This document shows positions 32,556 through 64,000 of a stretch of DNA of 64,000 bases, in pieces (the first letter of the stretch is position 1; the number at the start of each line of letters is the position of its first letter). The stretch lies in the NCBI GenBank assembly GCA_051294375.1, contig CM119264.1, forward strand, positions 22,841,826 through 22,905,825. The letters run 5' to 3'. The stretch is from Paraspadella gotoi. Taxonomy: Eukaryota > Animalia > Chaetognatha. The position numbers and the translations under genes are program-made. The notes below the pieces were generated by a model, which did no database searches, was not told the DNA's origin, and saw nothing but the letters and a program-made list of their open reading frames with translations.

Positions 32556-35500
32556 TTACCACTGACGACAGTTTTCCTTGTTTCGCCGAAAGAGCGCGAT
32601 GGCGAATGACATGATGATGACGGATAACAATTCCATAGCAGAGAGAAAGTAAAACGCATCCCGATATGAATCTGATTGGAGAAGAGGTTTAAAAAAAAAA
32701 ATCAATTAATTTATTTTTGATTTTGTAATAATTTTAGAACCAAATTTTAGTTTTTATTTTGTCCACAGAGTTCGGACTTGAATCTTATCCCCCTAATTGA
32801 TCCTCCCCCACGCAAAATTGTTTTACAAAATTGTTTTATTTTTTATAGCAGAAGAATTGTTAAGGATTTTTCTATCTTTTGGATTGTATTTAGTTTTTCT
32901 ATGTCGAAAAACATTAGTATGGGAAACAACCGAAAACCAGTAGTTATGTTTGCTATAATTTCTATTAATTTTGATCTAAGGACATTATGCCCATGTCATG
33001 CAGTATCTAAATTCAATATGATGCTCGACTGTACTTGTAACCAAAATTATGTCACTCTCGCCCCATTATTTAATATAGAGTGGTACCAAGAATATAAAGA
33101 CTTTTTAATATTGGCTACACATCTTTGGAAGGGTTCTAAGAAAGGTATACATGATAAATTAGATGCTAAAATAAGCTAAACATAAAGTAAAATGACCAAT
33201 CAAATAATTGATAAAACGAAATTTTTGAGATATATCATTAAGTACAAATGATCGAGGTAATTAAAATTTTTTTCTATGGGGGTAAGTTGTAAGTCCGAAA
33301 ACTGTTCAAGTATTATGTGAGCTCAATGAGTCGCTCTCCAAAGTCTTAACTGACTTTTTGATGTATTTAATATGCAATCAAAGTTTGGTAATAGTAAGTA
33401 TACTAAACAAGGCCTATTTTGGATAAGCTTGTTAAAATTTTTTTTTTTTTAATTTCAAATCTCTGCAAGTTTTAACCTTTGGTATCCAGATGAAGTCCTA
33501 CGAGAGGCGGGAGAGCAATGGCTGCAATCCCTCCGCTAAACTGCAGCAACCCAATTGTTTTGTGAAATGATTTGGTTCCAAAAATGTCGCCGGGAACCGA
33601 GAAAAACAAAGGCTGAAACGCCCCAGATAGTATGCCTGAGGGAAGTAAGAAAATCTCAATAACTTTAATTTTTTAATAACTTTACATAAATTTTTAAATG
33701 AAATTGCTTTCGAAAAATCATATGTACATGCTCAAATTAACTCGTCATCTGAAAAAGATGCAATAAATTTTGCTTTAAATCTTTAAAAAAAAAAATCTAA
33801 CCTACAAAGCTGATGACGATAAGAATGTCCGTGAGGTTTTTGGTCAACGACAATACGGCGAGCGCGCCAGAAATACAGCAGGAAAAGAGGAGTAACAAGA
33901 TTGGCCCGCCCTCCTCGAATAAATGAAAGACTCCTATCAGGCCCATCCCTAGACAGCCGACAACCTCAAAGGCGGAAAAGACTGTCTGGATGAGCGCGAG
34001 GTCCAAAGAACTGGCGCCGTTATCGTGCCTGGCGAAGGGGCTCAGGTAGACCTGAATGGAGTTGTCCACAGCGCTGGAATGGTTTTTTGTTTTGTTTTGA
34101 GTTTTATGGCATAAAGATAAATAGGAGGTATAAATAATGATTAATGAGTGTATGGCAACGGAGGGACATGTGTGATGCGTGGGGTGTGAGGCATCTCCGG
34201 ACAGCTGGCGCTCAGGGCTTTGGACCTGCAGTGACCACCCCATGTCACTGGCGTGTTTATGCCGACACCATCACACTTAACCAGCGCGACCATGAGGGGA
34301 TTGAACCCGGAACTCATGGTTGGTGAACGAGTACTTAGCTGCCCAAGCCAATGGGACGAGCTGAGTTTCACCAAGCTATACGGGAGGCGAATTTAGGATT
34401 CGCCACAAGTGATTAAATTTAAAGTGTAATTGAATTATGGAAGAGAGTAAGCAAATGACAGAAGGAACGAGAAATAAATAAACAAATATTCTTACTTTAT
34501 TAAAGTGTGCGCTGTGAGATATAATAAGAAGACGCGATTTTTTAGGATAGAAAAGTCGAATATTTTCGTCAGACAACTTCTTTTACAAAATGGTATCGTT
34601 TTCTAGAAGAAAAATATTAAATTAAATTTGTAGTGTTATTAGTTTAAGCATATTATGAACAAAGACGAGTCGACTGTCTTGTTTTACCGACCAAAATTTT
34701 AGCGTTGGTTGCAGTTGCATCAGCAATTTCCATGGCTGAAGTTTTGCGGGACTTTTCTATCTTCGGATCTTCTTTTTCCACTTCGAGATCTTTCTCCTCT
34801 TTCTCTTTATAATCTTCTTTTCTCTCTTTGATTTCTATCCTCTCTTCTTTCTTCCCCACAACCTCTCTCGGTCGTCCCATCCAACCGAGGGCGACGATGT
34901 TAAAACCAAATCCTCCGAGGATAAGAAAGGCGCCTCGCCAGGCGAACTGATCCTTCAGCCAGGTGATGACAAAGGCCAGGCATGTTTTGCCCGCGATTCC
35001 GGCGAGAAACATCAAAGTGATGCACATGTGACGATGCTTTTCTTCAACCTAAGAAAGAACAAAAAATCTTTATAGTAAGTAAGTAACACAGAAACTTTAT
35101 ACTTATAGTAAGTAAGCAACACACTATGGTGGACTAAAATCCACCAACCGTTCATCAGCGGCCATTGGTGCCGGAGGCAAGTCATTCACCTCCCAACCCA
35201 AAGGTCCGGGGTTCTAGCCCGGTGGTCGCCTGGCAGTTAACAGGGACGGGGCGCTTAACCAGCCTGTAACTCGGTGTTACAGCCTGATCCGAAGCTCAGG
35301 GACTGCTTATATTGAACGGTTCTATCACTAACACATAATAATAATTACTGTCTCTTCAACACAAACTAACGAACAACCTCCCAACCGGTTACCCTTTGGG
35401 AAATGATGATTGCGCCAGTCAAAATAATTAATGACGCGCAGGAGAAAGGGAGAACGCCGCCCAGGAATATCAGCGCCGTCATAGACTTGGCCAAAGACGC

Positions 35501-35652
35501 CGCGACTAAACCGACGCCGAAAACGACACCGCCGACGATCGCCGCTGCCCAAGTAGGAAAACCGGCGTTGTAGGCGAATGTGGAGAAAATCGCCAGGATC
35601 GGGCCAAGGCCGCCGGCGACGCTGTGAACCACGGAAACGGCGCTGGACGATT
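32556..35652 (-). CDS. Divergent monocarboxylate transporter (SLC16/MCT-like MFS), paralog B; exons 35652-35393, 35048-34692, 34602-34496, 34073-33802, 33635-33477, 32671-32556; exon 1 not found in the expected orientation
   Basis: GT-AG junctions with compatible phases. MCT-type segments WLKDQFAWRGAFLILGGFGFNIVALGWMGRP, IFDFSILKNRVF and DIFGTKSFHKTIG..ALPPLVG..D..DSYRDAFY. Exon-by-exon similarity to paralog A, including an identical 260-nt second exon. Confidence 0.85.
32766..33304. mobile_element. Probable MITE in the last intron of MCT paralog B
   Basis: Imperfect ~27-bp TIR: CAGAGTTCGGACTTGAATCTTATCCCC versus reverse complement CAGTTTTCGGACTTACAACTTACCCC. No clear TSD. Confidence 0.45.
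34151..34407 (-). mobile_element. Solo LTR of twister/tRNA-like retroelement, family B
   Basis: Perfect 4-bp TSD AGTG (34147-34150, 34408-34411). Ends TGTGGC...GCCATA, 5' hairpin GGCGAAT-cctaa-ATTCGCC, A-box-like TGGCTTGGGCAG, B box GGTTCAATCCC, and a twister motif. Confidence 0.8.
34204..34285 (-). ncRNA. Twister ribozyme, type P5 (predicted cleavage U^A between 34259 and 34258)
   Basis: Minus strand: GCTGGT-t-AA-GTGT-GA-TGG-TGT.cg.GCA-TAA-ACAC-GCC-AGTGAC..GTCACT-G-CAGG-TCCAAAGC-CCTG-agc-GCCAGC. Stems P1-P5 and the pseudoknot CCA/TGG are all intact. Confidence 0.85.
35125..35358 (+). mobile_element. Solo LTR of twister/tRNA-like retroelement, family A
   Basis: Perfect 4-bp TSD ACAC (35121-35124, 35359-35362). 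Ends TATGG...TCTTCA, 5' hairpin GGTGGA-ctaaaa-TCCACC, tRNA-like block GCGGCCA..CTCCCAA..GGTTCTAGCCCGG-TGGTCGC. Near-identical to the LTRs at 52222 and 52640. Confidence 0.85.
35233..35306 (+). ncRNA. Twister ribozyme, type P5 (predicted cleavage 35256/35257)
   Basis: GCAGTT-AA-cAGG-GA-CGG-GGCGCT-TAA-CCA-GCC-TGTAAC-tcggt-GTTACA-G-CCTGA-TCCGAAGC-TCAGG-GACTGC, with pseudoknot CCG/CGG. P2 is short (2 bp). Confidence 0.7.
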
Positions 35653-35871
35653 CTTATTCACGAAATAAAGTGTATGAAGTATAAACAATAAAAAGTTACT
35701 TATTATAGTTTTTAAAAATGAAAATAATTTATTTATTTACAAAAATATGTTAAACAACTTTAAAAGTTTACTTCTCTGTCGCACATTAATTTTTTTGAAC
35801 AAGATTAAATTTTTAAATTAAATTTCTTAATTAAATTTCTTAATACTTTATTGTTTCTTAAGAATAAGATG

Positions 35872-38660
35872 TAAGCAATTTTTCAAAGTAAATAATCCTA
35901 AACCTCTTAAAATTGGGTCTAAAATATTTGTTTTTAAAAAACTTGCATGCTCTAATAATATTTTGAAATTTTTTTTAAAATTTTGCAACTTGTACCAGAG
36001 AGGTTTGTAAACTTCTGTACGAAATATTGTACTATTAAAAAAATTTTCTTTTACCATTTTTCAGTGCTGATTATTTTGATGGGGTCATTTTCAATGATGC
36101 ATAACTTCCTTATTTGGGAATATATATGGTTTTTAAATTTTATAATAAGTGGGCCTTGGGAGTCCTGCATGCATATAAATTTCAGTCATTTAAAAAAACT
36201 TTGGCACAGGCCAAAATTTTTTTACAAAATTCAATTGTCAATCCTGCTTCTAAAAAATATTAATGCAAATATTGTTATTCTTTGCTAAAATCAGTTAAAA
36301 CATATTCAAAATAACCCTAAAGCCAAAAATTTTTTTTCAATTTTTAAAAACTCATTTGCATATTGTTGCTTTATCAATTTTCATTTTTTACCTAAAGTAA
36401 TCCATTTTTTAATAATTTTTGGTTTGACGATAGTATATCATAAACCTTTTACAAATTATACATCAAACCTAATTTTAATAAATTTTAAATATTTTTAATA
36501 TTTTTTAATATTATTAAAATTATAATTTAATCAAAGCATTCTGCTAACTTTTTCAATGTGGCTCATTGAGAAAGAGTGACAACTCGAGGATTCTAAGAAT
36601 ATAATTTTTTTACAATTAAATGTCCCAAAGCTGAATAATTCTTTTTCAAATTGGTCAAAAATTTTTTTTAAAAAAAACCACTACTTTTTAAACCTTTATT
36701 AAAAAGCCGGCTATGATAGCTTTGCTTTAAAATATTGGCAATTAGGTCAAGAATTGTTCATATTTTTGGTATGACATTCCAGGAATAAAGAAGTATTATT
36801 AGTAGATTCCTCAATCGATTTTTAAATTTGGCAGAACATTTTACTTTTTTTACCAAGTTTTTAGAGTACGCTAAATGGTTTCTCTTGATTACACAAAAAT
36901 AGGAAATTGAAATAAGAAATTTTTATACCAATAGTTTGGTGTTATGTTTGATAATAGAAGAAAAAGACCTCGTTTAAAAAATTTGACTGGAACAGGGTAA
37001 CTAAGACTTACCAATGGCATCGTCCATGCCAATCGTTCTTTCAAATAATTTTTTTTATTTAATACATTTGAAAGGGAAAAAAAAGAAAAAAGTCGGAATG
37101 CTGGTTGCATGAAAGGTACAGATAATCTGGACATCGTTGATTGATAATCATGACCTTTATTGTCTTGGGTAATGGGGCAATAAATTAAAACCCAAAAATT
37201 CAATCATTAAGTCAGTCAATCAACCTTTTCAAAATAAGGCTGTTCGCGAAATTTTTTTCGTTCACTAAAAAGATTTTTTTCTTCCCTAAAAAATTTCGCC
37301 AGAACACACCTATTTGAAAAGGGGTTTGATTGATTGATTAATGATAAAATTTTTTAGGTATTTAACTGCCCCCATACCAAGACATAAAAGTCATGATTGT
37401 CAAATCACCAATGTCCAGATTATTTGTACCTTTCATGCCACTTACATCCGAATTTTTCTTTTTTTTTCCCTTTCAAATGTATTTAAATGGAAAAAAATTA
37501 TTTGAAAGAACGATTGCTTGAGACGATCCTAATGGTAAGCCTTAGTTACCCCTGTTTCCAGATAAAATTTTTAAACGAGATTTTTTTTCCCATTTATTTG
37601 AAAAACAACCCCAACTATTGGTACTATAATTTCTTATTTCTCAAATTTATTTTGTGTAATCGGAAAACGTTCAGCGACTGTAAAAAAAAAAAATTTTTTG
37701 GTAAAAAAGAGTAAAATTTCTGCCAATTTAAAATCGATGGAGGAATCTACTATAATATCTTTATTCCCTGACATGTCACTACACAAAATTGAACAATTCT
37801 TGACCTAATTGCCAAGTATGAAACAAGCTATCATAGCCGATTTTTTATAAAGGTTTAAAAGTAGTGTTTTTTTAATTTTGACACTTGAAAAGAATTTTAT
37901 CTCAGCTTTGGGACATTAAATTTGGCTTAAAAAATTATTATATTTAGAATCTCGAGTGCCCCTCTTTTCAATGATGCCACATTGAAAAAGTTAGCCAGAA
38001 TGCTTATTAAATTATAATTTTTAATTAATATTTAAAAATATTAAAAATATTTAAATTTATTAAAAATTAGGTTGTGGCATATTGTAAAGGTTTGATGATA
38101 CTACTATCGTCAAACCAAAAATTTAAAAAGGATTTACTTTTAGGTTAAAAAAATTGAAAAATTGATAAAAGCAACAATTATGCAAATAGTTTTTAAAATG
38201 TTGAAGAAAAATTTTTGCTTTAGGGTTATTTTGGAATATGTTTTAACTGATTCTATAGCAAGAATAACCAATATTTGCATTAATATTTTTTAGCAGGATT
38301 GACAATTGAATTTTGTTAAAAATTTGGCCTTGTGCCAAAAGTTTTTTAAATGATGAAATTTATATGCAATGCGACTACCCAAGCCCACGTTATTACATAA
38401 AATTTTTAAAACCATAATATTCACAAATAAGAGTTTTATGCATCATTAAAAAAATGACCATCAAAAATATCTAGCACTGATAAAAATGGTAAAAAATTTT
38501 TTATAGAACAATATTTCTACAGAAGTTTACAAACCCTCTTGAGTACAAGTTAGCAAAATTTAAGAAAAAATTTCAAAATCATATTAGAACTATTGCAAGT
38601 TTTTAAACAAATATTTTGACCAATTTTTAAGAGGTTAGGATATTTATTGAAAAATTGCTA
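35872..38660. repeat. Long inverted repeat / foldback (two ~1.37-kb AT-rich arms, centre ~37240-37310)
   Basis: Arms are reverse complements, e.g. AGCAATTTTTCAA at 35874 versus TTGAAAAATTGCT at 38648, and TTGACGATAGTA versus TACTATCGTCAAA. There are many indels between arms. Related sequence occurs at ~44160-44470. Confidence 0.85.
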
Positions 38661-38984
38661 AAATGGCACATAGCAGACATCCAGACGCCAACTTCCTATA
38701 AAATCTAAAGCCATTTATCCTATAATGGAAAAGTTATTACATGTTACAGACTTACGACATTCTTAGGTTTCCCGGTACTGTATTGTTAACAATGTAAATA
38801 TGTACGATGTGCAGAGAAACAAATCCACTAAAGGTTTTTTCTACGGTCCGGCCAAATTTGACTATAATGTAGTAATTACACAAGTCCTCCCGTCAAAAAA
38901 TGATAGATCTAATTGCTAAAGAAAAGATTTTCAAAGAAAAAAAACGGTTCCCGAGCAAAATTTATTTATTATTTGAATTAAAAA

Positions 38985-39170
38985 ATGAATAATCAACTTC
39001 TCTCATCGACTATAGAAACGAAATGGGGAATTCGAGTGAAAACCTTCGTCAAGTCACGTGAGCTTTCGATTGGCTCTTGTCATTCCGGAAATTTCTTCAT
39101 CGTTCCCGGATTAAATCTCAAATTGGGCTCCTTTTTTTTCTCGACTGGCAAAATGAGGGATGTGTGAACG
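38985..39170 (+). pseudogene. MCT first-exon homolog in inverted orientation, frameshifted as assembled
   Basis: Frames combine to TFVKSRE.RLAL..GNFFIV.GLNL.LG.FFLDWQNE, similar to paralog A exon 1 SFVKSPDFRLALCLAANVFIFHGFNLNLALFFLDWKTE. It lies on + whereas both MCT genes are on -. Confidence 0.65.
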
Positions 39171-39333
39171 GTGAATCGGGGTTTTACCAAACCCTTTTTC
39201 CGCGATCTGAAATATTTGATTATATTTTTCANNNNNNNNNNNNNNNNNNNNNNNNNTCCGGGCGAACAATTTTGGTGAGAATTCAATAGAAAACTATAAT
39301 AAGGTATTCCTTTCGTTTCGTTGTGTTTTGGTG

Positions 39334-39418
39334 TTTTAGCGAAAACAAAGTTTAGAGTTTGTACTACAACGATAAAAAATCGCTGTAGTACAAACTCTAA
39401 ACTTTGTTTTCGCTAAAA
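39334..39418. repeat. Perfect 35-bp-arm hairpin/palindrome
   Basis: TTTTAGCGAAAACAAAGTTTAGAGTTTGTACTACA - acgataaaaaatcgc - TGTAGTACAAACTCTAAACTTTGTTTTCGCTAAAA. Confidence 0.9.
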
Positions 39419-39794
39419 TAGAAAACTAAAACTCGGAAATCGAGGCGTAAGAAAGAAGAGGCGAGCCTAACATCTTTTGCAATTACTATTAATATATTTT
39501 TCCTTTCTTCACTCTTAGTTTAAAGTTAGTTGTACGTATGTATGTTTCCATTTTAATAATATTTTGATTTTACTTGGCATTTTTTTAGAATATTAAATAT
39601 TTTAACTTGAGGCGACGAACAGATGAGATGAGATCAGATGAGCTTCTACAAACTGTTTTAAGTCATGACGAATAATTGTTGGCTAATCTCTTGTTTCATG
39701 AATTTCAGTATTGTAATTTTAAATGGTGACAATTGAAAAAAACAAAGTAAAGGTCCGAGTAAAAAGTTACATTAATTAGGTAATAAACAAAAAT

Positions 39795-41736
39795 CTATTT
39801 AAATTTCTTCACCATCTCCGGCAGTTTTCTTTGTTTCGTCGAAAGAGGGCGACGGCGAAACAAAAGAGAAGCGATGAGAAAAATCCGAGAGCGGCGAGGA
39901 AGTAAAAGGCGTCTCGATACGAATCTGTTTGATATAATTTTATTGATAAATATTTATATACGATCTCTTTATTTTAAGATTAGGAATTACGGAGAGTCAG
40001 ACCAAAAATTGTAGAGACCGAACCCCGCTATTTCTCACCTCTTTTGTCAAGATGAATTCCGATGAGGGGAGGAAGAGCGATGGACAAGATTCCGCCGCTG
40101 AACTGAAGAAACCCGATTGACTGTTGAAGACAATTCGTCCCAAAGATGTCGCCAGGAACAGAGAAAAACAAAGAGCGAAATGCGCCGGAAAAAAGCCCTG
40201 ATGAAGAAGGAAGAGTTACACTATCGTCAGTGTCGATTCGTCACGCTATCCAGTTGTATTTGTTACAATTAACTTACTATTTTGACTTAATTTACTAATA
40301 CTACCCCTTCAGTTATAATCAAACGTTTACCAACGAAGCTGATGACCGCCAGCATGCCCACAAGCTGCTTGGTCGCGGACAAGGAGACCGCTGCTCCAGA
40401 CAAGCCGCAGGCCACTAGAATCAGCAGAATCGGCCTCTCTTCCGCTAATCGAGGGTGAGTTCCAATCAGGCCCGTTGCCAGGCAACCGATCGCTTCGCAA
40501 GCGGAGTAAACCGACTGCAGCGAGGCCACTCGAATCGCCCGTTGCTCGTGCTCGGCGAAGCGATTAGGAAGACGGGGATGGATTTGTAGACGGCGCTGGA
40601 AAGATCGAGGGGGGGGGGTGATGAGGGGGGGAGTGGGTGACGTCGTGAGAAAAGAGTTGTCAACTCAAAATGTCCCGACAAGGTTCAAACTTCAAATTGT
40701 GTTCATTTAAAAAGAAAATCAAAGTATGGATATCTCGATCTTCATTTTACAATCTTTGACTTACAGTAAACAACAGTGAGCCACCATATAAATTTGATAT
40801 ACTCGGTTTTTGAAGATTGAAAAGTCAAAAACTGCGTTGCATCGAAGCTTTGAAAAAGGGGCCAAGTTTTTTTTAGAGGGAGAGTTCGTTTTTGATCTTT
40901 GAATGTCCGACGACGTTTCTGCGGCAACAGCTTCGACTGTTGCATTCCGAGCTGTTGGAAGGGATCCATGCTTATCACTTTGAGAAATTTCTTTCACTGC
41001 GTCATGATCCTTTTTCGAGTTCTTTTCTTTATTTTTTTTCACTTTTTTATTATCATTTGTCTGTTGTTGTCTTCTTTCTTCATTCTCTCTTTTCTCCGTT
41101 TCTCGTTCTCCTTTTTCTTCCTCTTCCTCCTTCCTCTTCCCCGTCTCCATCCTCGGTCTGCACATCCAACTCAGGGCGACGATGTTGAGCCCGAAGCCTC
41201 CGAGGATGAGGAAGGCGCCTCGCCAGGCGAACTCCTCTCTCAACCAGGTGACGGCGAAGGCCAGGCAGATTTTTCCCGCGAATCCGCCGAAGAGGAGCAG
41301 AGTCGTGCAGATGTGACGATAAGTCAGATGAACCTGAGGAGTGAAAATAGGAGACAAAATATAAAGAGTTGTGTAAACAAATGGGGAAAAAATAGATAGA
41401 GAAAGAATGAGATTTATAATTATAAAGTAGCCAGTTACTGTACTAAATAAAAAAGTAAAAAGTATTCCAAGATACATTCGGGATTAATTGAGGTGGATGA
41501 TAACTTTGAAGCTTTTCGTTTGAATAGAGTATAATTTCAGAAAAAGAAGGAAAGTTATCTCTATTGCCCATTGGGTCTAAAACTAATTTTTTCAATTTCG
41601 CATCCTTCATTTTTTAAAAATTATTTCACACCTCAACCGGTTTGAGTAAAGGTAAAATTAACATTTAAAGATCTAGTGGGAACAAGACTGCAGAAATTTA
41701 TGTATGTACTGTATTTAAAGGATTTTTGATTTGGTT

Positions 41737-41803
<67 letters not shown>

Positions 41804-42277
41804 TGACCCTTCGAGACACAATGATTGTCCCAGACAAAACTAGCAGAGGTGAGCAAGCGAATGGAAGAACGCCGCCCAAAAAAATAAGCGCCATAACAGA
41901 CTGTGCCAGCGACGCCGCCATTACACCGGCACCGAAAACGAAGCCAGCGATTATCGGCGCCATCCAGGGAGGAAAACCGGCGTTGAAGGCAAAGGCGACG
42001 AAGACGGCGAGACAAGCGCCGATTCCACCGGCGACGCTTTGGACGAGGGAGATGACGCTCGAAGATCCTGGATTATGGGATCATGTTTGTATTGTACATT
42101 TGCTTTACTTGATTACATTTTTTACTTCGACTGATTACCTTGGAACTCTGTTTTCCAGTCAAGAAAGAAAAGCGCGAGATTCAAGTTGAAGCCGTGAAAG
42201 ATGAACACGTTTGCGGCGAGGCAAAGAGCCAGCCGAAAATCTGGAGATTTGACGAAAGATAAGATGTGGAATTTCAT
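39795..42277 (-). CDS. Divergent monocarboxylate transporter (SLC16/MCT-like MFS), paralog A; exons 42277-42139, 42067-41808, 41333-40765, 40595-40331, 40197-40039, 39924-39795
   Basis: ATG at 42277, GT-AG introns with compatible phases, stop TAG at 39797-39795. Motifs WLREEFAWRGAFLILGGFGLNIVALSWMCRP, VFDFSIFKNRVY and LPPLIG..D...SYRDAFY. One apparent 1-nt frameshift near 40560, probably a sequencing error. Confidence 0.85.
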
Positions 42278-45200
42278 GTCTATTTCGACGTTTCCAGAAC
42301 AGTAGCATAGAACGAAACAGACGTAAGTGTTTCACATGAGCGACACCAAAAATAAACTTTTCAAAGGTATGATCACGATGTGGATTAACAAGTTTAATTT
42401 TTAAATGACGAAGAAACTCGTTGGATGCAGAGTGAACTTGTTCTCGATATCCAGTTTCTTTTTCGAAAAAAAAAAGACTAGAAATTAATATAGAAAAAAG
42501 TTATTCCGAAAGAAGTCAGCGGATTTTTTCATATATTTTTATGACACAATGAAAAATAACGTGGCGAAACGGTCTCGTGCTGATTTTGTCCCTTTAAAAT
42601 TGTTTCTGAGCCAAATTAATTGATCATTACTTTTGGTAATATGTGCGATATACACTACTGGACATTACTGTATCTGACCATAACCCTTGACCATCAACAA
42701 AAAAGCTAACTCGATCAAAAATAGTAAAAAAGCTGAAGCAATATAGCTCGAAACGCTTACAAAATTTTAAACCATTGCTTTTAATATTATTAAAACAAAA
42801 CTTTAACGATAGCCTAATAGTTAACCGAGACCAAGATGAATATTTTTTACCCATCATTTCCTCAATTTATATGAATCATTTGTTTGTAATTAGTCAATTA
42901 ATCTAAATAACAATATGACAAATTCATTTTCAATTTTTTTTATGAATGGGAAGTTTTCTCTGCTTACTCCCCTTGTGTCTAATTATTTAATATTTTAAAG
43001 GTATTTTCAAAAACCTTATATAATTACTATATTTTTCACTTTTTTTCAATTCTTTCAAACAAAAACAACATCATAAAAACATTTGGAAAAAAATATTTTG
43101 AAACTAGAGAATAATGGATTATGAGTCAGGAAAAAAAAATTGCAATTCTAAAAAAATCAGCCTCTAGTTTTTCGATTTTTTAGAGGCTGATTTTTTTATT
43201 TTTTTGATATTTTGATTTTCTATGCAAACCATTATTCTCAATGAGCATAGGTCGGACGAAATTTTTTTCCAACAATTTTAAAAAATTTCAACTTTTTTAA
43301 TTAAGCTTTTTTGGGGGAAATAAATAAATAAATTATTATACGATGGGTACATCTGAAAGTGATATGTCTCTAAATGACAAAAAAATTTTCTTCAAGTTTT
43401 ATTTTGAAATTTAAGTATTGTACCAATAAAAATAAGTGAGATACTCCCGGCTTTGCCGAAATTTTTAATTTAACAAAGATTTGTACTGCGTAATTTAAAA
43501 AAAGTTATTTTTTTAAATAAACTTTTGAAAGAAAAAAGGTAGCAAGGTGGATGTGATATCAAATTAAAGCCCTAATCATGAGACACCTTTCTAAAAGAGT
43601 TTTATTAAATTAAATCCATAAATCTTTACACAGCTTTTGTTTAAATCAGAGTTAAAAGTATAACAGTTTTTTGCTTTAAAAATTTCAATAAAGGCATATG
43701 AATTTTTTTTTTTTTTTTGTAATTTGAAAAAGGAAAACTGAATTACATTTTGTTTATTATTAATTTTTTTTATTCATAAAATTGCTTATATTTTTCAGTT
43801 AAAGTAAAAAACAAGCAAAAAATTTATGTTGTAGCTTGAAAAATGTATTTTTAAAAATTAAAAATGATAAATACAAAAATGTTTTCAGCTTGATATAAAC
43901 AGTCTGGACATCTACCTTCTTGTCTGTGAAAAAAAATCGTTATTTTTCATTATCTTTAATTGCAAACTAAAAGCTTGACACACTGCTTGTTTTATCATAA
44001 TAAAGTTGTAAAAAATTATATAGCTGGTAACATATTTGACAAAGCAAAAACATCATTGTGTTAAATTGTATTGATAATTTTTTTTTAAATATAGCAAGGA
44101 ATTTAATTCTATTATTTATCATCCATTTTAATTAAGAAAAAATATTTCTCATAATAGCCCATTGGAAAGGGTTCATTGACTGACTTAATGATGAATTTTT
44201 TTAGATTTTTTTACTGCCCCCATTTCACAAGATATAAAAGGTCATGGTTATCATGTCAATAAGTCAGATTATCTGTACCATTTCTGCAACCTGCATTCCA
44301 AATTTTCTTTTTTTCCCTTCAAATGTATTAAATAAAAAAAATTATTTGAGAGAAAAAATCGGCGTGGAGGATGCCATTGGTAAGCCTTAGTTACTACCCA
44401 CTTCCCGATCGAATTTTTAAATGAGGTTTTTTTTTTCATCTATTTCAGACATAACACTAACTATTAGTACTATTTTTTTTTTTTCTTTTACAATTCTATA
44501 AATAAATATGAATAAGTAACTTTTTAAAAAATTTTTTTATCTTTTACCCTATATTCAGTCATATCTAAAAAAACAAAAAATATTTGCATTGATATTTTGG
44601 ATATCAATATATGAAACTATAACGTTTCAAAAATAAAAAGAAATATAATAATATTGAACAGTGAATTTTTTTATGCACGGAACAGTAACATTACGCTATT
44701 TTTCATTGTGTCTTATATCGTTAGATGAGGAATGAGGTGAATATTGTAATTCTCGAGTTTCACTTTAATCGTAGTGAATTGAAAATTTTATGAAGCATAT
44801 TGAATCTCAAAATCGTCAGTTGAATCTTTCACCAAAAATTTCGCGTGGCGATTACATGCCAATTCAGCATCCAAGATGGGAGGTAAAATTGTATCAGAAG
44901 TTAAAAATATACATTAATGGGAACCAAAAGCATTAAGTTCTAAGGAAAAAGGTTTTTTCCGCCTATGATCAGGCAATTTATGCAATTTATCAACAAATCC
45001 AAGGAATCTCGGTTGGTGAAAAAAAATGTCAGATTTCGAAAATCCACCAGCGTGTGGAAAGGTTCACCCAGGATAACCGGAGGCTCCTCAGTGCAGAAGT
45101 TGGAGGAGTAGGGCTGACCAGAGGCTGAACGAACCACCTTTACACTAAAAAGATGGTTGTGACAGGATGGTACACCAAGATGATTGACAACAAATGGAAC

Positions 45201-50400: not shown

Positions 50401-53400
50401 GGATTTCTCGGGGTTGGGAAAAGGGGGATAGTCGCGGGGAGGGAGTGGAGGAGGAGAAGACTGTGGGCAAGGAGTTGCCGAATCGGATGGTTGGAAGCGA
50501 TTGGGAAAATTTGGTGCGGGGGAAACGGTAATTTGTGGTCGATTGTGGTAAGTTGTGGAGTTTGAAGGAGACTTGGTGACTCTCATTGCAGGTTTTAATG
50601 TCTGGTCGAAAGTCGTGCAGGCTGGAATGGGGTGGGAGAGAGTTTTAATGGTTTGAAGGCGACTGTTGGAGGCTGTGGATGAATAATGGGGTTTAAAGTC
50701 GTTCGTGGCAGTTCTTGTGGGATTTTTTGACGGCTTTTCGGCGCGTGCGCAATCAACTCTGGGAGTCCGATTTATGGACGGATTTGAACAGTTTCGAAGT
50801 AAAAGGTGGGAAGGAAAAGGTTGTAAATTTGTCTTTGAAGAGGGTAAGTGACTGCGGTGATCTCCTGTGGTTTGTATGTTATCTGTCGTCTGTAGAGGGG
50901 TATGGCATTTGGCGTAAGCAAATAAAGGATTGAAAAATAAATAATTAAAAATACAAAATTCAACGTTGCGAATTGAGACTATTCAAGAATATATTCTTTT
51001 TTTCGCCTTTTTTCCTTTTTGATTATCCCGCTGTCTAAAAATAGAGAACAACAACAACAACAACAACAACAACAAAAATAAAACGAAAACCGTGAGCAAC
51101 TTTCCCCGCAGCATCGAACCTGCTTCGCCCTAACGTCATTGGCGGCGTCGATTGCGTTGCATATCGGAACAGGGGTTGGACCAACGTTGCATCTGGCAAA
51201 GGGAAGAAAGGGTAGGGAGGTGTAAAAATAGTCATTAGACTGTTTAAAATGAAAAAAAAAGGAAACAAAGGAAACTAGGAAATAAAAAATGAACTTAAAA
51301 AAAAAAAAGAAGTACCAATTCTTGGCGACTGAAACTCATGTGCGACTGAAACTAGGGTTATACATGCGGTTAAACTGGAAGTTAAATATAATAAATTAAT
51401 GTTTAAAAAAAGGGTTGCGGTCAGTGGTCACCTTTGAGAAGGCGGGTTGGATCCGACGGTCCTCGGAGGAAGAGGAGGAGGATTAAGTTGAATATAGGAG
51501 GATGAAGCGACCCTTCGAACCTGAATTATTCCGGACCTGAGGGCGAGTGCCGGGGCGTCATCTGTGGGCAGAATGTGGGTATTGAGTAAGGAGAAAAAGG
51601 AAATAAAACTATCGAGATAAGCTAGACAACATATTGGATAAAACTGCTTTTTTTGAAGTATAAGCGAAGAAAATATTATAAATATAAGCAGAAATTAGTG
51701 GCACGGGAAATGACTTCAGACATGTCGGTTATCGAGAAAGGAATGAAAGGAAGGGCGACATGCAGGTACGCACTTTTACGTTTAATTGTTATTAATGTGT
51801 ATTTGCGGAACACAATTTAAATTAGTATGTTGGAGTCTGTCTTTTTCAATTATTTTCCTCACAAAAGCAATAAAATCGTTGTGAACCAGAAAACCGCTTA
51901 TCATAGCCCTCTTCATTCCCAAATGGACAAGCGGCTGTGACTGTGAGTGATAGTCGACTTCGGGCGATATTTGAAATCCGTGTAGTATACAGTGCAGTAC
52001 ACAGTACAAACTACACATGTTTTATCCAAGATTAGGCAGATTTAATTGTCCGACTTTTATAAATCAAATACTTATGGTGAACTAAAATCCACCAACCGTT
52101 CATCAGAGGCCGTTGATGCCGGAGGCAAGTCATTCGCCTCCCAACCCAAAGGNNNNNNNNNNNNNNNNNNNNNNNNNAAAAACAGTTTAAAATGAAAAAA
52201 AAAGGAAACAAAGGAAACTAGAATGGTGGACTAAAATCCACCAACCGTTCATCAGCGGCCATTGGTGCTGGAGGCAGGTCATTCGCCTCCCAACCCAAAG
52301 GTCCGGGGTTCTAGCCCGGTGCCGCCTAGCAGTTAAGAGGGACGGGGCGCTTAACCCGCCTGTAACATGGTGTTACAGCCTGATCCAAAGCTCAGGGACT
52401 GCTTATATTGAACGGTTCTGTCATTAACACTTATCAATTAATATTGTCTCTTCATTGGTAGCCCGACTTCCGACATAACAGCAACAACAACACTTTCAGG
52501 CGACAGCCTCAACCTGGCGATGCACTTTCTGCCATCAATACATCAGGCGACATGCCTCAACTTGGTGACGCACTTTCCACCAACAACAACAATACACTGA
52601 AGAGACGCAACAGACTTCTCCCTATGGGAGGGGGGGATGTATGGTGGACTAAAATCCACCAACCGTTCATCAGCGGCTATTTGGTGCTGGAGGCAAGTCA
52701 TTCGCCTCCCAACCCAAAGGTCCGGGGTTCTAGCCCGGTGGCCGCCTAGCAGTTAAGAGGGACGGGGCGCTTAACCCGCCTGTAACATGGTGTTACAGCC
52801 TGATCCGAAGCTCAGGGACTGCTTATATTGAACGGTTCTGTCATTAACACTTATCAATAATTACTGTCTCTTCACGAGGAAATAAAAAAAGAACTTAAAA
52901 AAAAAAGAGTACCATTTCTTGGCAGTTGAAACTCATGTGCGACTGAAAACTAGGGTTATACATGCGGTTAAACTGGAAGTTAAATGTAATAAATTGATGT
53001 TTTAAAAAAAGTGTTGCGGTCAGTGGTCACCTTTGAGAAGGCGGGGGTTGGATCCGCCGGTCCTCGGAGGAAGAGGAGGAGGATTAAGTTGAATATGAGG
53101 AGGATGAAGCGACCCTTCGAACCTGAATTCTTCCGGACCTGAGGGCGAGTGCGGGGCTCATCTGTGGACAGAATGTGGGTATTGAGTAAGGAGAAAAAAG
53201 GAAATAAAACTATCGAGATAAGCTAGACAACATATTGGATAAAACTGCTTTTTTTGAAGTATAAGCGAAGAAAATATTATAAATATAAGCAAGAAATTAG
53301 TGGCACGGGAAATGACTTCAGACATGTCGGTTATCGAGAAAGGAATGGAAAGGAAGGGCGACATGCAGGTACGCACTTTTCGTTTAATTTTTTTTAATGT

Positions 53401-56400
53401 GTATTTGCGGGAACACAATTTAAATTAGTATGTTGGAGTCTGTCTTTTTCAATTATTTTCCTCACAAAAGCAATAAAATCGTGGTGGAACCAGAAAACCG
53501 CTTATCATAGCCCTCTTCAATCCCAAATGGACAAGCGGCTGTGACTGTGAGTGATAGTCGACTTAGGGCGATATTTGAAATCCGTGAGTACACAGTGCAG
53601 TACACAGTACAAACTACACATGTTTTATCCAAGATTAGGCAGATTTAATTGTCCGACTTTTATAAATCAAATACTTATGGTGAACTAAAATCCACCAACC
53701 GTTCATCAGAGGCCGTTGATGCCGGAGGCAAGTCATTCGCCTCCCAACCCAAAGGTCCAGGTTCTAGCCCGGTGGTCTAGATAGAACTGTTCTGTCACTA
53801 GCACATAACAATTATTATTGTCTCTTCATACTTATAATAGAAATGAAATACTAAAACTTGAATGGTTTGAATTCAAAGCTTAAATAAATGTTAAATTTAA
53901 TTACTTCATTTATTGTCCTGCAGAGTTGATAATCTCTTCCTCTGTGAAAATAAAACCGGTTTGTTTTTTCCATTTCTCGTCAACGAAATTGATAGAGATA
54001 TTCTATATTCTATTCTTTTGAGGCGATTGTTATTAAAATTAATTAATGCTCGTTGTACAGGTTTTTTAATTAGCCGGTGAAGGGAAGAATTAGTGTGTTA
54101 TCATCCATTTATCTAGTTAGTGAGAATATTTTGCCTTCTATCCTAAATTTTCTAATTTTCTACCACTATAATATTGATTTATAATTTGAGAGTATTAAAT
54201 TAGTAGAAGTCAAAATAAAAATCTAAAGCGAAACAGAGAGGCGGCTTCATACTTGAGTCGGCGACGCATTTGCTTTGATCCGTCAACCAACGACGCATCA
54301 ACTGCGAGGCCGTCGGGGATCGACCTCGACGGTTGAACTCGTCCACGACGGATTCCGATAGAGGGAGACGCGTCGTCGGCGTCGTTGTCGTTGTCGTCGA
54401 CGTCGTCGTTGGTGTCGTCGACATCGTCTTTGGCTGTTGCGATTGCGATGCAGAGCGCAAGTTGTAATTATTTATGGACTCAGCGATTGGAGAAGTTGCT
54501 GATTTTGGTGACAGTAGACCCTTGCCCGCTAGAACTTCTGACTGCGAGAGAGGGAATGCTTTTGAAGCTGTTTGCGGCGAATTACTTTGCAGATCAATCT
54601 CGTTGGTTAACGGCGAGGAAGCTGTCGTTGTTGGCGGCCGCATCGTCGTCGTCGTCAACGACGTCGTCGGCGTTACGCGTCGTTGGCGATTATCTAATTC
54701 TTCATCATGGTAGTCATTTGTGTAATTGTTGTCGAACTTCATGTTGTCATTTCTAAATTCGTCATATTCATTACAATTTTCTTTTTTATCCTTGTCCTCT
54801 TGCCACTCGTCCTGAATGTGCAAAGAGTCAGCGCTCGGAGAGCAAGGCGACGTTTCCATGGGAACTACAGGTGGCGCGGGAGATTCTGGCGTCGTGAGAC
54901 TGCGAAAGAATGCCGCTTCCGGAGCGCCGGTGTCATCTCGTTGATACTGAAATTGCGGCGATGCCGTCTCATCAGTTTCTGGCGACGAGACGAAGGCAGG
55001 GCCGTCGGGCGCAGAGTTGCCGTCGACGTCGTTGTCGTCGTCGTCGTTACTTTGCCGATCTTCATGCCAACCTTTGAGGCGGCGATCGAAGACGAGAAAA
55101 AAGAAGTAGATAAAAAGCGGAAAACGAAAGGGAATGAGGAAAAAAAAGGTCATGCATCTAAGAAACCGTCAATTACGCTTTCAAAGAGAAAAAAGGAAAC
55201 GCGCAACACGACTTGATTTTTAAAATGTTTTGGGGTGTTTTTCCCAACTTTTGTTTCGTTGTCCTGAATTCCCTCCTTGCTTTCTTTCTTCCTCCATTTC
55301 AATTAGTACGACCCTTTCTCCCCCCCTTCAGCTTCTCTCTCCCCCTTCTGTCGTCCCCCATCCCCTCACCCTCCCACTCTCACCTTCTCCAGTCTCCGCC
55401 TCGACCGGCTCCTCGATCGCAATCTCCCTCAAGACGACCGTCTCCGCGGAGAACGTGGAGCATCCCGAGAGGCTTGAAAGACGCTTAAGCTCGTGGGAGT
55501 CGGTCCTGGCGTAGCAGCGCAGCAGCGGGGCCGGGGGCAGCAGCGCCGGGGAAAGCGGCGATGGGGACGGAGCGGGAGGCTGAGGCGTCGGACCATGCGG
55601 GACGGCGTCGCTCGATATTAAGTCGACCGCGTCCGTATTAGATTCTTTGGTTAAAACTGATTGTTCGCTCGTTCGTTCGCTAGTTTGTTCGTTCGTTGGT
55701 TTATCTATGCTATCGAGGGAATCGGTTTCGTCAGACGACGGAGACGAAATGCGAACCGAAGGCAAAGAGGTGGAGGAGACCGACGTGAGAGGAAGCGTCG
55801 TCGGCGTTTGGGATTCGTTTCGCAGATCGCTTCCGATTTCTCTTAGGGTTTCACCCAGAGATTCATTGAAGGGTTCAGTTCGGGGTTCCGTTTGGAAATT
55901 AAGCGGGAGTTCGGTTCGGGATTCAGCCTTTGAAATTGACGGAGCGATCGAGTCTTGAGGCGACCGCGGCTTCGTCGTTGGCGAGGTCTCCTTCGGGCGA
56001 CGAGTCGAATGATTAAGCGGATCGAATATGACGAGCGAGTCGGAAGCCTTGTCAGCTGGCGCTAACGTGGCGGGGCTAGGCCGGGAGGGGCATGCCGCGA
56101 CGGCCTCCACATGCCGATCTTGTTCGGCCGATCGCCCCATAAGTCTCAATTCTTCCGCATCGAATCCGTCGTCAGAAATGAAATCTCCGCAACAGAATTC
56201 TCCGCTTGTGGTGACCCACGCCCGGCTCGTGGTTCCCCATTCCCCGCTTTGGCTGAGTGAATCGTCTGAAGAAGACGTAGGTTGATCGCGAGGGACTGGA
56301 TGTCGGGAGAAAATCGAGGGAAAAAGGATGGAACAAATATATTTTTTTAGGTTTACAAAGTAGCACATAAAACGTACTATGAGATATCACACGATCAAGT

Positions 56401-57974
56401 TAAACAATAAGTTGTGGCGGTATATTCACACCGCCTCACGTCCGTCATCCTTCAGCCAAATCCATTGGCTCAGAGGGGGAACACACCATCCCAAGTGTAG
56501 TGTTCCATCCACAGTCCTAACGACTTCCCTCTGCGTTGGCAAAGCGAGACCGTCCTAGGGTAACCGCGCCAGTGACTGGAGGCGTCACTGAGGGTCGGAA
56601 GCCCCCAAAGCCAACAGTGAGATGCCCCATCCCAATGGGCATCACAGGCAACCCGGCTGTTGCCATAAAGTTTGCTTTAAATGAATGCATAAATTGATCT
56701 ATGCTTCTTTTTATATATTTTAGAAGAATTCATAAATGCGTACAAACCTCTCAATCCTTTTCGCTTCTTCCTTCTTTTGATTGGAGATTCAGCTTCGGAA
56801 TTAAATGCGATCAAATCGCATTCCGTCTCTGGAAAAACAAAATATTCAAACGAAAATTAAATGGATTCAATTTATTTCGACTTTTCTCATATATTATATA
56901 ACGCTTTGAACCAGGGGCGGCGAAAGGGGGGTTTCATTCGCCTCAGGCGGAGGGCCCAGGATGGCTCCAGGAAGAGAGAAAAAATAAGAAAAAAAAAAGA
57001 AGAAGAAAAAAAAGAAGAAAAAAGAATAGGAGGCAGAAGTTTGAGCACTGGAGCAATTCTCAAAGCAGAAAGTCGGTATTCGAAAACTAAATTAATGGAG
57101 AGGGGGGGGGGGGCGGCCAGGGGGTCAGTGGGGGGGCCCGCCATTTCTCTCGCCGACGCTGCTTCGAACAACTATATTATTAAATCTATGTATGACGTCA
57201 GAGCTAGAGATAATTTCCGTGTCCCCTTAATAGTCAACTGCGGTTGAATAAATTTAATGCCCAAACAAGTTATTTTCGCCGGCGGGAAGGTGGAAACTGA
57301 GTTGATGTCATTTATTGGGGATTCGATGCGATTTCAGCGATGATTTCATTCGTTATTATTAGATATTTACGCTACAACTAAATTTTTTTCTTAAAATTAA
57401 ATACGTTACATTGACTATAAACATTTACCAAGTCTCATTAAGGAATTATATATAAACACATTAATAAAACAAATAGCAAATATCAATTTCCCTACCATCG
57501 GCGTCGCTCTGCGCCATCCCCGAAAAGGACCATTCGCTCAGTGACTTTTTGGTGTAGAGCGTCCGGACGGGAGATTCGGACGCCGGATGCCAGGCGGCGT
57601 CTGTGGCGTCGGATACCGTCGGATACCGGCGCCGGATCGGAGAGATCGGAGCCGAAATTGGCGGCGCCATCCGGCGGCGCTGAAGATCTAATCGCGGCGT
57701 TGAGACGGAAACTGGATACAGGGGAAAACATTTTATGACTATAATATATAATATATATATAATATATAATAATTATCATCTTAATCATCATCTTCGTCAT
57801 CATCCTCACCATCATCACATGCTCAATGCTCAATTGCTCATCAGTTATTAATAATTACTTAGATCGTTATTCTCTTCATCAGAACTGGTTCCGTCGTTCT
57901 CCAATTTTCTCGTCGTCGTCGTCGTCGTCTCATCTTCGTCGTTGTTCCTCGTCCTCCCCCAGAGACTTCGCGCC
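47493..57974 (-). CDS. Multi-exon gene encoding a large Ser/Pro/Thr-rich protein with a probable divergent C-terminal RUN domain (RUSC-like architecture); 5' end not resolved
   Basis: The 3' exons ..-50009, 49771-49628, 49481-49270, 48254-48158 and 47882-47493 join in phase. They give LPGLLRGLLLHGI...RNVWS...FERLKFLVAAFNH...LYEKSG...AELEALMTSFPFDF, the order of RUN blocks. Long low-complexity exons lie at ~54230-55080 and ~55330-56300, with further exons at ~56748-56828, 57496-57711 and 57859-57974. The gene structure is better supported than the RUN call. Confidence 0.55.
52329..52402 (+). ncRNA. Twister ribozyme in the 5' LTR (predicted cleavage 52352/52353)
   Basis: Same motif as 35233-35306. 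L4 reads TCCAAAGC, giving one mismatch in the pseudoknot with CGG (mutation or read error). Confidence 0.65.
52749..52822 (+). ncRNA. Twister ribozyme in the 3' LTR (predicted cleavage 52772/52773)
   Basis: GCAGTT-AA-gAGG-GA-CGG-GGCGCT-TAA-CCC-GCC-TGTAAC-atggt-GTTACA-G-CCTGA-TCCGAAGC-TCAGG-GACTGC. Confidence 0.7.
53676..53828 (+). mobile_element. Family A solo LTR with the ribozyme deleted (duplicate copy at 52073-52152, cut by the gap)
   Basis: TSD TACT (53672-53675, 53829-53832). Retains the hairpin, tRNA-like block and 3' end TCTCTTCA but lacks the GCAGTT...GACTGC twister block. Confidence 0.8.
56413..56667 (+). mobile_element. Solo LTR of twister/tRNA-like retroelement, family C
   Basis: Perfect 4-bp TSD AAGT (56409-56412, 56668-56671). 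Ends TGTGGC...GCCATA, 5' hairpin GGCGGT-atattcac-ACCGCC, A box TGGCTCAGAGG, degenerate B box GTTCCATCC, twister at 56535-56615. Confidence 0.8.
56535..56615 (+). ncRNA. Twister ribozyme, type P5 (predicted cleavage 56561/56562)
   Basis: GTTGGC-aAA-GCGA-GA-CCG-TCC.ta.GGG-TAA-CCGC-GCC-AGTGAC-tggaggc-GTCACT-G-AGGG-TCGGAAGC-CCCC-aaa-GCCAAC, with pseudoknot CGG/CCG. Confidence 0.8.
56912..57161. mobile_element. hAT-type MITE
   Basis: Imperfect TIR CAGGGGCGGCGA / TCGCCGACGCTG and an 8-bp TSD CTTTGAAC / CTTCGAAC (one mismatch). Confidence 0.7.
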
Positions 57975-59261: not shown

Positions 59262-60208
59262 CGTCTATTTACTATTTTGTTATTATGAAATTGGTACAAC
59301 CAATATAAAAATTATCCATTCATTTAATAAATAAGCTATTTTGCCCCTGACTTTGGACAGGCTTTGGTGGTTTAAGGCCTCCATCACTCTTACAAGATAA
59401 TTACATAGCAGGTCCCTGCAAGCTTTCAATCAAGACTCTCTCACAGTCCTGTTTATTCACTCCCAGAGTACCTGGCTTCCCTATCAATGAAGTGGAAAAT
59501 ATTTCAAAGAATGTTTCAATTGTATGAAAAGACCACTCCCTTTATTTCAGAAAAAAAATTAGGAATTTTCAACTTTGACTTTTCTTCACTTTTCACTTCA
59601 CTTTTCACTTTTCACTTTTCACTTTTCACTTCACTTTTCACTTTTCACTTCCCTTCTTCTCACTTCGGTCATCCGAGGATTGAATTGATTTGATTGATCA
59701 CAAGATCTAATAGAAGAAGAAATATAAAAAAAAAAAAAAGAAGAAAAAAGATACTAAAGAAAAGGACCCGAACAAATATTTTAAGCTTCTTACACTCGAT
59801 CAAAAACGGGACCTCGATTTCTTTTTGTCGCTTCAGATTTTCCGGAATTTCTTTTTTTTTATATTGAGCCGACGAAAACTACGAAACATCGACGCGTCGA
59901 AACGAATTCAAAAACCGAATTAAGTCAGTTTCGAACCCATAAAATTTCCGGTTTCCTCGACTCTTTTAAATAAAGAAAAGACACGCCTTTAAAAGTAAAC
60001 AGAAAATTAACAACTGTATTGCTCCACTTTTAAACCAAGAAAAAAAAAAGATGTAATGCCACGCAAACGCTTAAAAATCATTACGTAATATGTGGCATTG
60101 TGATAGATGATTATATGTAAATTTTCATGACAAATACTATATCCAAACCTCAGTTTTATTTTTAATTTCTTTTTCGATTCCATTGAGCAGAAAGTTTCCT
60201 TCCTCGAA

Positions 60209-64000
<3,792 letters not shown>

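Follow-up and report, generated by a model that had tools for sequence, protein, structure and literature searches.

Does the P1 segment of the twister ribozymes carried by LTRs in Paraspadella gotoi close on its own strand or pair with a second copy, and does cleavage depend on that pairing? A sequence-only reading of the window (the whole 64,000-nt stretch of DNA that was analysed) had placed such a segment at 56552..56560 in an LTR of family C, called it and its counterparts in families A and B nearly self-complementary, and suggested dimer-dependent cleavage. The segment is real and had been started one base early, its true span being 56553-56560, in the slot of a circularly permuted P5-type twister fold that separates the T1 strand from the UAA cut site. 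GGCGCT (A), TGTCGGCA (B) and TCCTAGGG (C) were correctly identified as P1, and the window holds a further twister, D, that was absent from that reading's list. The P1 segments and twister copies are as follows.

56553..56560, plus strand: family C P1 segment TCCTAGGG, predicted cut site 56561|56562.
56535..56615, plus strand: family C type-P5 twister fold with P5, P2, T1, UAA, T2, P3 and P4/L4.
52346..52351, plus strand: family A P1 GGCGCT in the 5' LTR of the two-LTR element, with a T1 mismatch in this copy.
52766..52771, plus strand: family A P1 GGCGCT in the 3' LTR of the two-LTR element, twister at ~52749-52822.
35250-35255, plus strand: family A P1 GGCGCT in a solo LTR.
34267-34260, minus strand: family B P1 TGTCGGCA, twister at ~34285-34204.
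59346..59392, minus strand: twister D, P5-type without P3, P1 AGGCCT at 59380-59375.
63738-63731, minus strand: second family C copy, P1 TCCTAGGG retained, in a decayed solo LTR.

Judged from their sequences, A, B, C and D are probably P5-type twister folds, for which site-specific self-cleavage is predicted. Each has the GA and UAA core, a T1 (3 bp) and T2 (2 bp) that pair to L4 with two-sided changes between families, and P2 and P4 stems with the ends in P5; copies A2 and C2 have core defects. The family C twister ends in P5 and has an extra P3 stem, P2 is 2 bp in A and D and 3/4 in C, and T2 of twister D is altered on both sides (AC/GT). Type-P5 twisters (RF02684) have the same segment order, GA, UAA, T1, T2 and P4/L4, and differ from these in a 12-22-nt P1 hairpin where a self-complementary 6-8-mer stands here; A, B and C also carry the added P3 stem. 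Twister D matched the Rfam Twister-P5 model RF02684 at 59346-59388 on the minus strand (25.8 bits, under the gathering score of 37.6), and families A-C were unmatched in the Rfam scan of the window at E up to 1. Rfam miRNA matches in the window were rejected as microsatellites or inverted repeats. A type-P5 trait that A, B, C and D lack is a stable closed P1 hairpin. P1 had been described as 2-3 bp closed by a 2-nt loop, which is no ordinary hairpin; a realistic monomer would form 1-2 bp around a 4-nt loop and is predicted to be unstable, at +2.7 to +5.6 kcal/mol for the four.

P1 of families A, B and C and of twister D is fully self-complementary as RNA, in each case through a different sequence. 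Every departure from a DNA palindrome is a G-U pair, which points to pairing at the RNA level and makes the word "nearly" unnecessary. The central dinucleotides are CG, CG, TA and GC across A, B, C and D, and self-complementarity at this position is useful to a second copy alone, because adjacent bases cannot pair within a single strand. The LTRs of families A, B and C can be aligned along their length, and the sequence comparison showed two-sided changes in T1, P2, P3, P4 and P5; P1 thus changed between families yet stayed self-complementary.

With P1 left free at 0-24 nt, the twister search descriptor matched the window five times, where 50 shuffles averaged 0.18 matches (max 2). P1 was self-complementary end to end, as RNA, in 5/5 of the window matches. 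The chance of a self-complementary central tetramer, G-U included, is ~0.13 per family, or ~0.002 if three families are independent and ~0.0003 if four are. A, B and C have a common origin, though, and were picked out post hoc; twister D alone has p ~0.06-0.13. The control set comprised 36 distinct P5-type twisters among at least 675 microbial loci from pattern scans, selected with a strict pairing filter (P2 4/4) that would itself reject A, C and D and may miss degenerate short-P1 relatives. Among the matches listed, P1 was fully self-complementary in 0/36 controls, the central tetramer was self-complementary in 0/29 controls of even length and the central dinucleotide in 4/29, and 35/36 had a P1 stem of at least 4 bp in a 12-22-nt hairpin. 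Complete pattern scans aimed at short P1 gave no valid further example. The P1 feature is real and unusual.

Several candidates from the scans were set aside. A microbial short P1, GAACGT, the one short case among the 36 controls, was rejected as a natural short-P1 monomer, as it is the 3' strand of the upstream type-P1 twister in a tandem. Three other short-P1 matches were dropped for lack of P4 pairing, and eight further short-linker matches with P2 3/4 are probably chance (0/8 self-complementary). Tandem overlapping double twisters were seen in six viral and metagenome contigs (L020, L027, L050, L062, L147 and L497), where a type-P1 twister is followed by a second core whose 5' and 3' P1 strands do not pair. 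The 5' P1 strand of the first twister can pair with either 3' strand, and a nested two-core fold is possible.

On palindromy across genomic copies, which the sequence-only reading had tied to its proposal, copies A2 and C2 retain the same P1 although core defects keep both from matching the descriptor. In family C, 1/8 P1 positions varied at 2% or more in a run vs 19/255 LTR positions, and the family B P1 had two 1-nt deletions in one contig of 1/4 runs (with 40 of the 138 substitution rows listed). Copy by copy, P1 does not exceed the LTR average in conservation, a comparison that is uninformative in families as young and homogeneous as these. P3 of the same ribozymes has ordinary loops that vary among copies, with loop variants at 11% and 29% in family C and at 35271-35272 in family A.

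A self-complementary P1 could also be a by-product of erosion, in which a dispensable P1 shrank from a longer hairpin to a linker and its leftover arms look palindromic with no dimer function. Three different self-complementary central dinucleotides (CG, TA and GC) fit this poorly when only 4/29 controls have one (among the matches listed), as do P1 mismatches that are all G-U and a twister D that had played no part in framing the proposal and shows the same self-complementarity. Microbial closed-P1 twisters, moreover, keep P1 uneroded in 35/36 cases (among the matches listed). The account draws on the dispensability of P1 in open-P1 twisters, on the palindromic look of any hairpin that loses its tip, on the shared ancestry of A, B and C, which leaves fewer than four independent events, and on copy-level data with no extra P1 conservation. 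We consider it unlikely, and selection of P1 self-complementarity for pairing between copies quite probable.

The LTRs that carry the twisters, and related copies, are located as follows.

56413..56667, plus strand: focal solo LTR of family C, 255 nt, TG...TA ends, 4-bp duplication AAGT, high-copy.
56466-56476 (box A) and 56502-56510 (degenerate box B), plus strand: tRNA-like boxes of the focal family C LTR.
63624..63839, minus strand: second solo LTR of family C, decayed, duplication ATAA/ATAG.
52222..52874, plus strand: two-LTR element of family A, LTRs 52222-52454 and 52640-52874, duplication CTAG/CGAG.
52456 (PBS-like TGG start) and 52626-52637 (PPT), plus strand: interior of the family A two-LTR element, 185 nt, non-coding.
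35125..35358, plus strand: solo LTR of family A, duplication ACAC.
53676..53828, plus strand: solo LTR of family A with the twister deleted (P5 strand to P5 strand), intact 4-bp duplication TACT.
34151..34407, minus strand: solo LTR of family B, 257 nt, 4-bp duplication CACT (this strand).

For family A the window holds an element with a twister in each of two LTRs, as had been supposed; families B and C are represented there by solo LTRs, the focal copy included, and none with two LTRs was observed for B, C or D. The predicted cut sites of the family A element, 52352|52353 and 52772|52773, delimit a 420-nt unit. Target duplications are 4 bp, exact for AAGT, ACAC, TACT and CACT and with one mismatch for CTAG/CGAG and ATAA/ATAG. 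On the twister strand the LTR termini are TA...CA in A and TG...TA in B and C (non-canonical). All three families begin with a short hairpin and have CCATTGG before box A. Using TRGCY..YGG for box A and GGTTC for box B, family B had box A TGGCT and box B GGTTC, family C had box A TGGCT and a degenerate box B, and family A had box B GGTTC, an atypical box A and a partial cloverleaf-like fold; in each family the tRNA-like boxes lie upstream of the twister. ARAGORN predicted 0 tRNA genes in the window. The twister strand lacks T4 runs in A (652 nt), B and C1, which fits Pol III read-through and is not significant. In the decayed C LTR at 63624..63839, the conserved cut-site A and L4 are altered and the box A region is deleted.

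The exact span of the focal C LTR collects contigs from four runs, which belong to three studies, with a summed contig depth of ~1.2-1.7 million vs 82-96 on the flanks in run X1 (not a copy number). Families A and B had a similar contig pile-up, and we read these as thousands of dispersed copies. Head-to-tail LTR-LTR joints of family A (35358 to 35125) without an interior were found in 3/4 runs (6 contigs in X1), and in one of them 4 bases separate the LTRs; the joints may be tandem solo LTRs or an insertion beside an LTR. Run X7, a presumed RNA run, contained a divergent B-like subfamily at about a quarter to a third of the depth at several positions (34151-34407), on contigs of 0.9-1.8 kb that might be longer or two-LTR relatives. 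Beside an N gap, 51243-52152 and 52178-53755 form a 96% duplicated block with an empty site (51275-51278) in one version and the two-LTR family A insertion in the other; the block possibly represents two haplotypes, i.e. a recent or polymorphic two-LTR insertion. Elsewhere in the window, a 2.8-kb AT-rich self-inverted repeat (81%) at 35874-38659 resembles a foldback or MITE-type DNA element and has relatives at 44126-44486. The segments 60200-63560 and 33485-42070 contain NADPH oxidase-like exons, with a weak Pfam Ferric_reduct match (E 0.034) in one of three exons, and two paralogous transporter-like genes recognized by eye; twister LTRs are located in introns or flanks of these genes.

All folding energies ignore both twister pseudoknots and are weak evidence either way; within that limit, P1 is predicted to gain far more from a second copy (self-duplex of -8.3 to -10.0 kcal/mol) than from its monomer hairpin (+2.7 to +5.6 kcal/mol). 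Strand swapping gives a double twister that is nested, and the swapped trans dimer is predicted at -11.7 to -13.7 kcal/mol relative to two twister-shaped monomers at 1 M, or nanomolar or tighter. In cis, on the real two-LTR stretch, the swapped form is predicted at -2.2 (MFE) to -2.8 (ensemble) kcal/mol. The unconstrained fold of the two-LTR RNA had a P1-P1 pairing probability of 0 and swapped P3/P5 instead. For A3, B, C1 and D, the monomer in twister shape was predicted 5.5-9.1 kcal/mol above the free fold, compared with a median of 4.0 (1.6-8.6, n=35) kcal/mol for the same gap in controls, and copy A1 had a small gap of 1.8 kcal/mol. Relative to the free dimer, the swapped form of these four was predicted to cost 4.7-7.4 kcal/mol per ribozyme (A3, B, C1 and D).

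The reading we prefer, at a probability of roughly 45%, is that the self-complementary P1 pairs between copies into a strand-swapped double twister that promotes cleavage and is not obligatory for it. Pol III would transcribe the element from the 5' LTR, driven by the tRNA-like boxes. Two twisters, on one RNA or on two, would then each pair their 5' half with the 3' half of the other, with both P1 segments forming a 6-8-bp duplex. Cutting at both sites would release the 420-nt family A unit without a terminal repeat and with its ends already held in a core made from its own two halves. A host ligase could circularize this unit, and the circle would be a monomer twister with P1 unpaired and slower re-cleavage. 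A Gypsy-type partner would finally reverse-transcribe and integrate the unit.

Four different self-complementary P1 sequences suggest such paired cleavage, as do controls without one and a predicted monomer hairpin that is unstable where the duplex is stable. Against it, the free fold is predicted to have no P1-P1 pairing and the swapped form lies above the free dimer. Another possible role for the palindrome is one in which monomers cleave fast and P1 was selected as a dimerization site of the processed RNA, so that two circles or linear units pair for packaging or template switching by a Gypsy-type partner. The dimer-initiation palindrome of retroviruses is an analogue. Such a site would account equally well for P1 covariation, P1 dispensability fits it, and in the monomer fold predicted for A3 the palindrome sits exposed in an 8-nt loop. 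What speaks for a part in cleavage instead is that the palindrome fills the exact P1 slot, from T1 to the cut site, so placed that pairing restores a complete double twister. We regard a dimerization site with no role in cleavage as improbable.

Published ribozymes give precedents on both sides. Hammerheads need a stable stem III for efficient monomer cleavage, and those of Penelope and amphibians in which stem III is short perform better when dimeric, as reported in sections of PMC6765202 and PMC7229834; the axolotl hammerheads of the latter, with a weak monomer and a better dimer, would by analogy be a precedent for paired cleavage. Twister results point the other way, as far as the relevant sections of these papers report. 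P1 deletion left cleavage near wild-type in an open-P1 type (PMC5408937), and P1 length or stability did not predict cleavage in type-P1 forms (PMC11662667). The hatchet palindrome drives a product dimer, yet monomers cleave equally well in the account of PMC6561176. The step from P1 pairing, which the different self-complementary sequences, 0/36 controls (among the matches listed) and a predicted favourable swapped dimer all support, to dimer-dependent cleavage is thus unsupported, as open-P1 twisters tolerate a missing or imperfect P1 and the hatchet dimer cleaves no better than its monomer.

In the strictest version of dependence, monomers would be essentially inactive, cleavage would occur in two-LTR or multimeric RNA alone and solo LTRs would be silent. 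The unstable monomer P1, the weak P2 of A, C and D, the large predicted misfolding gaps of A3 and C1, the strong closed P1 that is the rule in microbial P5-type twisters (among the matches listed) and the analogy with Penelope hammerheads (in part of PMC6765202) can all be read in its favour. Twister chemistry does not need P1, however, a 6-8-nt linker would probably suffice to close the helix end, and axolotl hammerhead monomers still reach 6-22% cleavage within an hour (PMC7229834). That solo LTRs stay quiet does not follow from the proposal either, since with thousands of copies and a trans dimer predicted to be nanomolar or tighter, solo-LTR RNAs could pair with each other. We consider strict dependence very unlikely.

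The fullest statement of paired cleavage is that these elements contain the first natural strand-swapped dimer twister, in a Pol III-driven animal LTR retrozyme, with cleavage delayed until the full element is transcribed, ends pre-aligned and a circle resistant to re-cleavage, in convergence with the double hammerhead. All of this together is doubtful. If true, the same dimer switch would have arisen twice in retroelements, from unrelated ribozyme classes, and a partner-gated twister would be a useful RNA-engineering part. With their closed, minimal P1, the elements also lend themselves to a small direct test of its effect on twister behaviour, as the cited data cover open-P1 forms only. Apart from the dimer question, they combine LTR-retrozyme anatomy in an element of non-plant type with a tRNA-like promoter and a twister, a combination that searches of the open-access literature did not turn up, and they suggest how a Pol III TRIM could define its RNA ends.

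In that literature we found no report of a dimer-acting twister or a twister LTR retrozyme, and Roth 2014, Lunse 2017 and Kosutic 2015 may list short-P1 or palindromic P5-type twisters; other natural twister permutations were looked for and none found, according to part of PMC10085705. The hatchet product dimer, as described in portions of PMC6561176, resembles the proposed dimer in a strand swap nucleated by a short palindrome, but its palindrome is non-conserved and unneeded for cleavage, whereas self-complementarity persists across families here. The minimal hammerheads of Penelope, newt and axolotl (from parts of PMC6765202 and PMC7229834) have a short self-complementary helix at the cut site, which the P1 segments here also provide and which by predicted energies could form an intermolecular duplex. 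In the hammerhead systems a retroelement repeat lies twice on one RNA; here it lies twice in the genomic element of family A, whose transcript would carry both, and B and C were seen as solo LTRs. These hammerheads are of another ribozyme class, and the short helix limits their monomers, where P1 is reported to be dispensable in open-P1 twisters.

The host elements resemble Helenus TRIMs as outlined in PMC10886601, which are short two-LTR elements with a tRNA-like sequence in the LTR, a PBS and a PPT. Family A has two LTRs, a PBS, a PPT and a short non-coding interior, and the elements of the window share the 4-bp target duplication of animal Helenus. Excerpts of the Helenus supplement place the tRNA-like part close to the 3' end of the LTR, where here it lies in the 5' half and is followed by the twister, and the LTR ends here are TA..CA or TG..TA. 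The word 'twister' did not occur in the accessible text of PMC10886601, and a term search of its supplement, in which line breaks can hide matches, gave no twister context. Compared with the published description, our elements are probably Helenus-like TRIMs.

Described animal retrozymes are without LTR, PBS and PPT in the sections of PMC7761336 that treat them. Plant LTR retrozymes, as characterized in parts of PMC4918200 and PMC7761336, are closer, with a ribozyme in both LTRs, a PBS, a PPT, a non-coding interior, a 4-bp duplication and many solo LTRs. Their R repeat is lost through cleavage at both sites, and the resulting circle is the template (PMC4918200); double cleavage here would likewise yield a unit without R. 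The plant elements carry a type III hammerhead, and ours a twister, tRNA-like LTR boxes and a predicted 420-nt unit; the Rfam scan found no hammerhead in the window. By this analogy the elements would work like plant LTR retrozymes, with the twister replacing the hammerhead.
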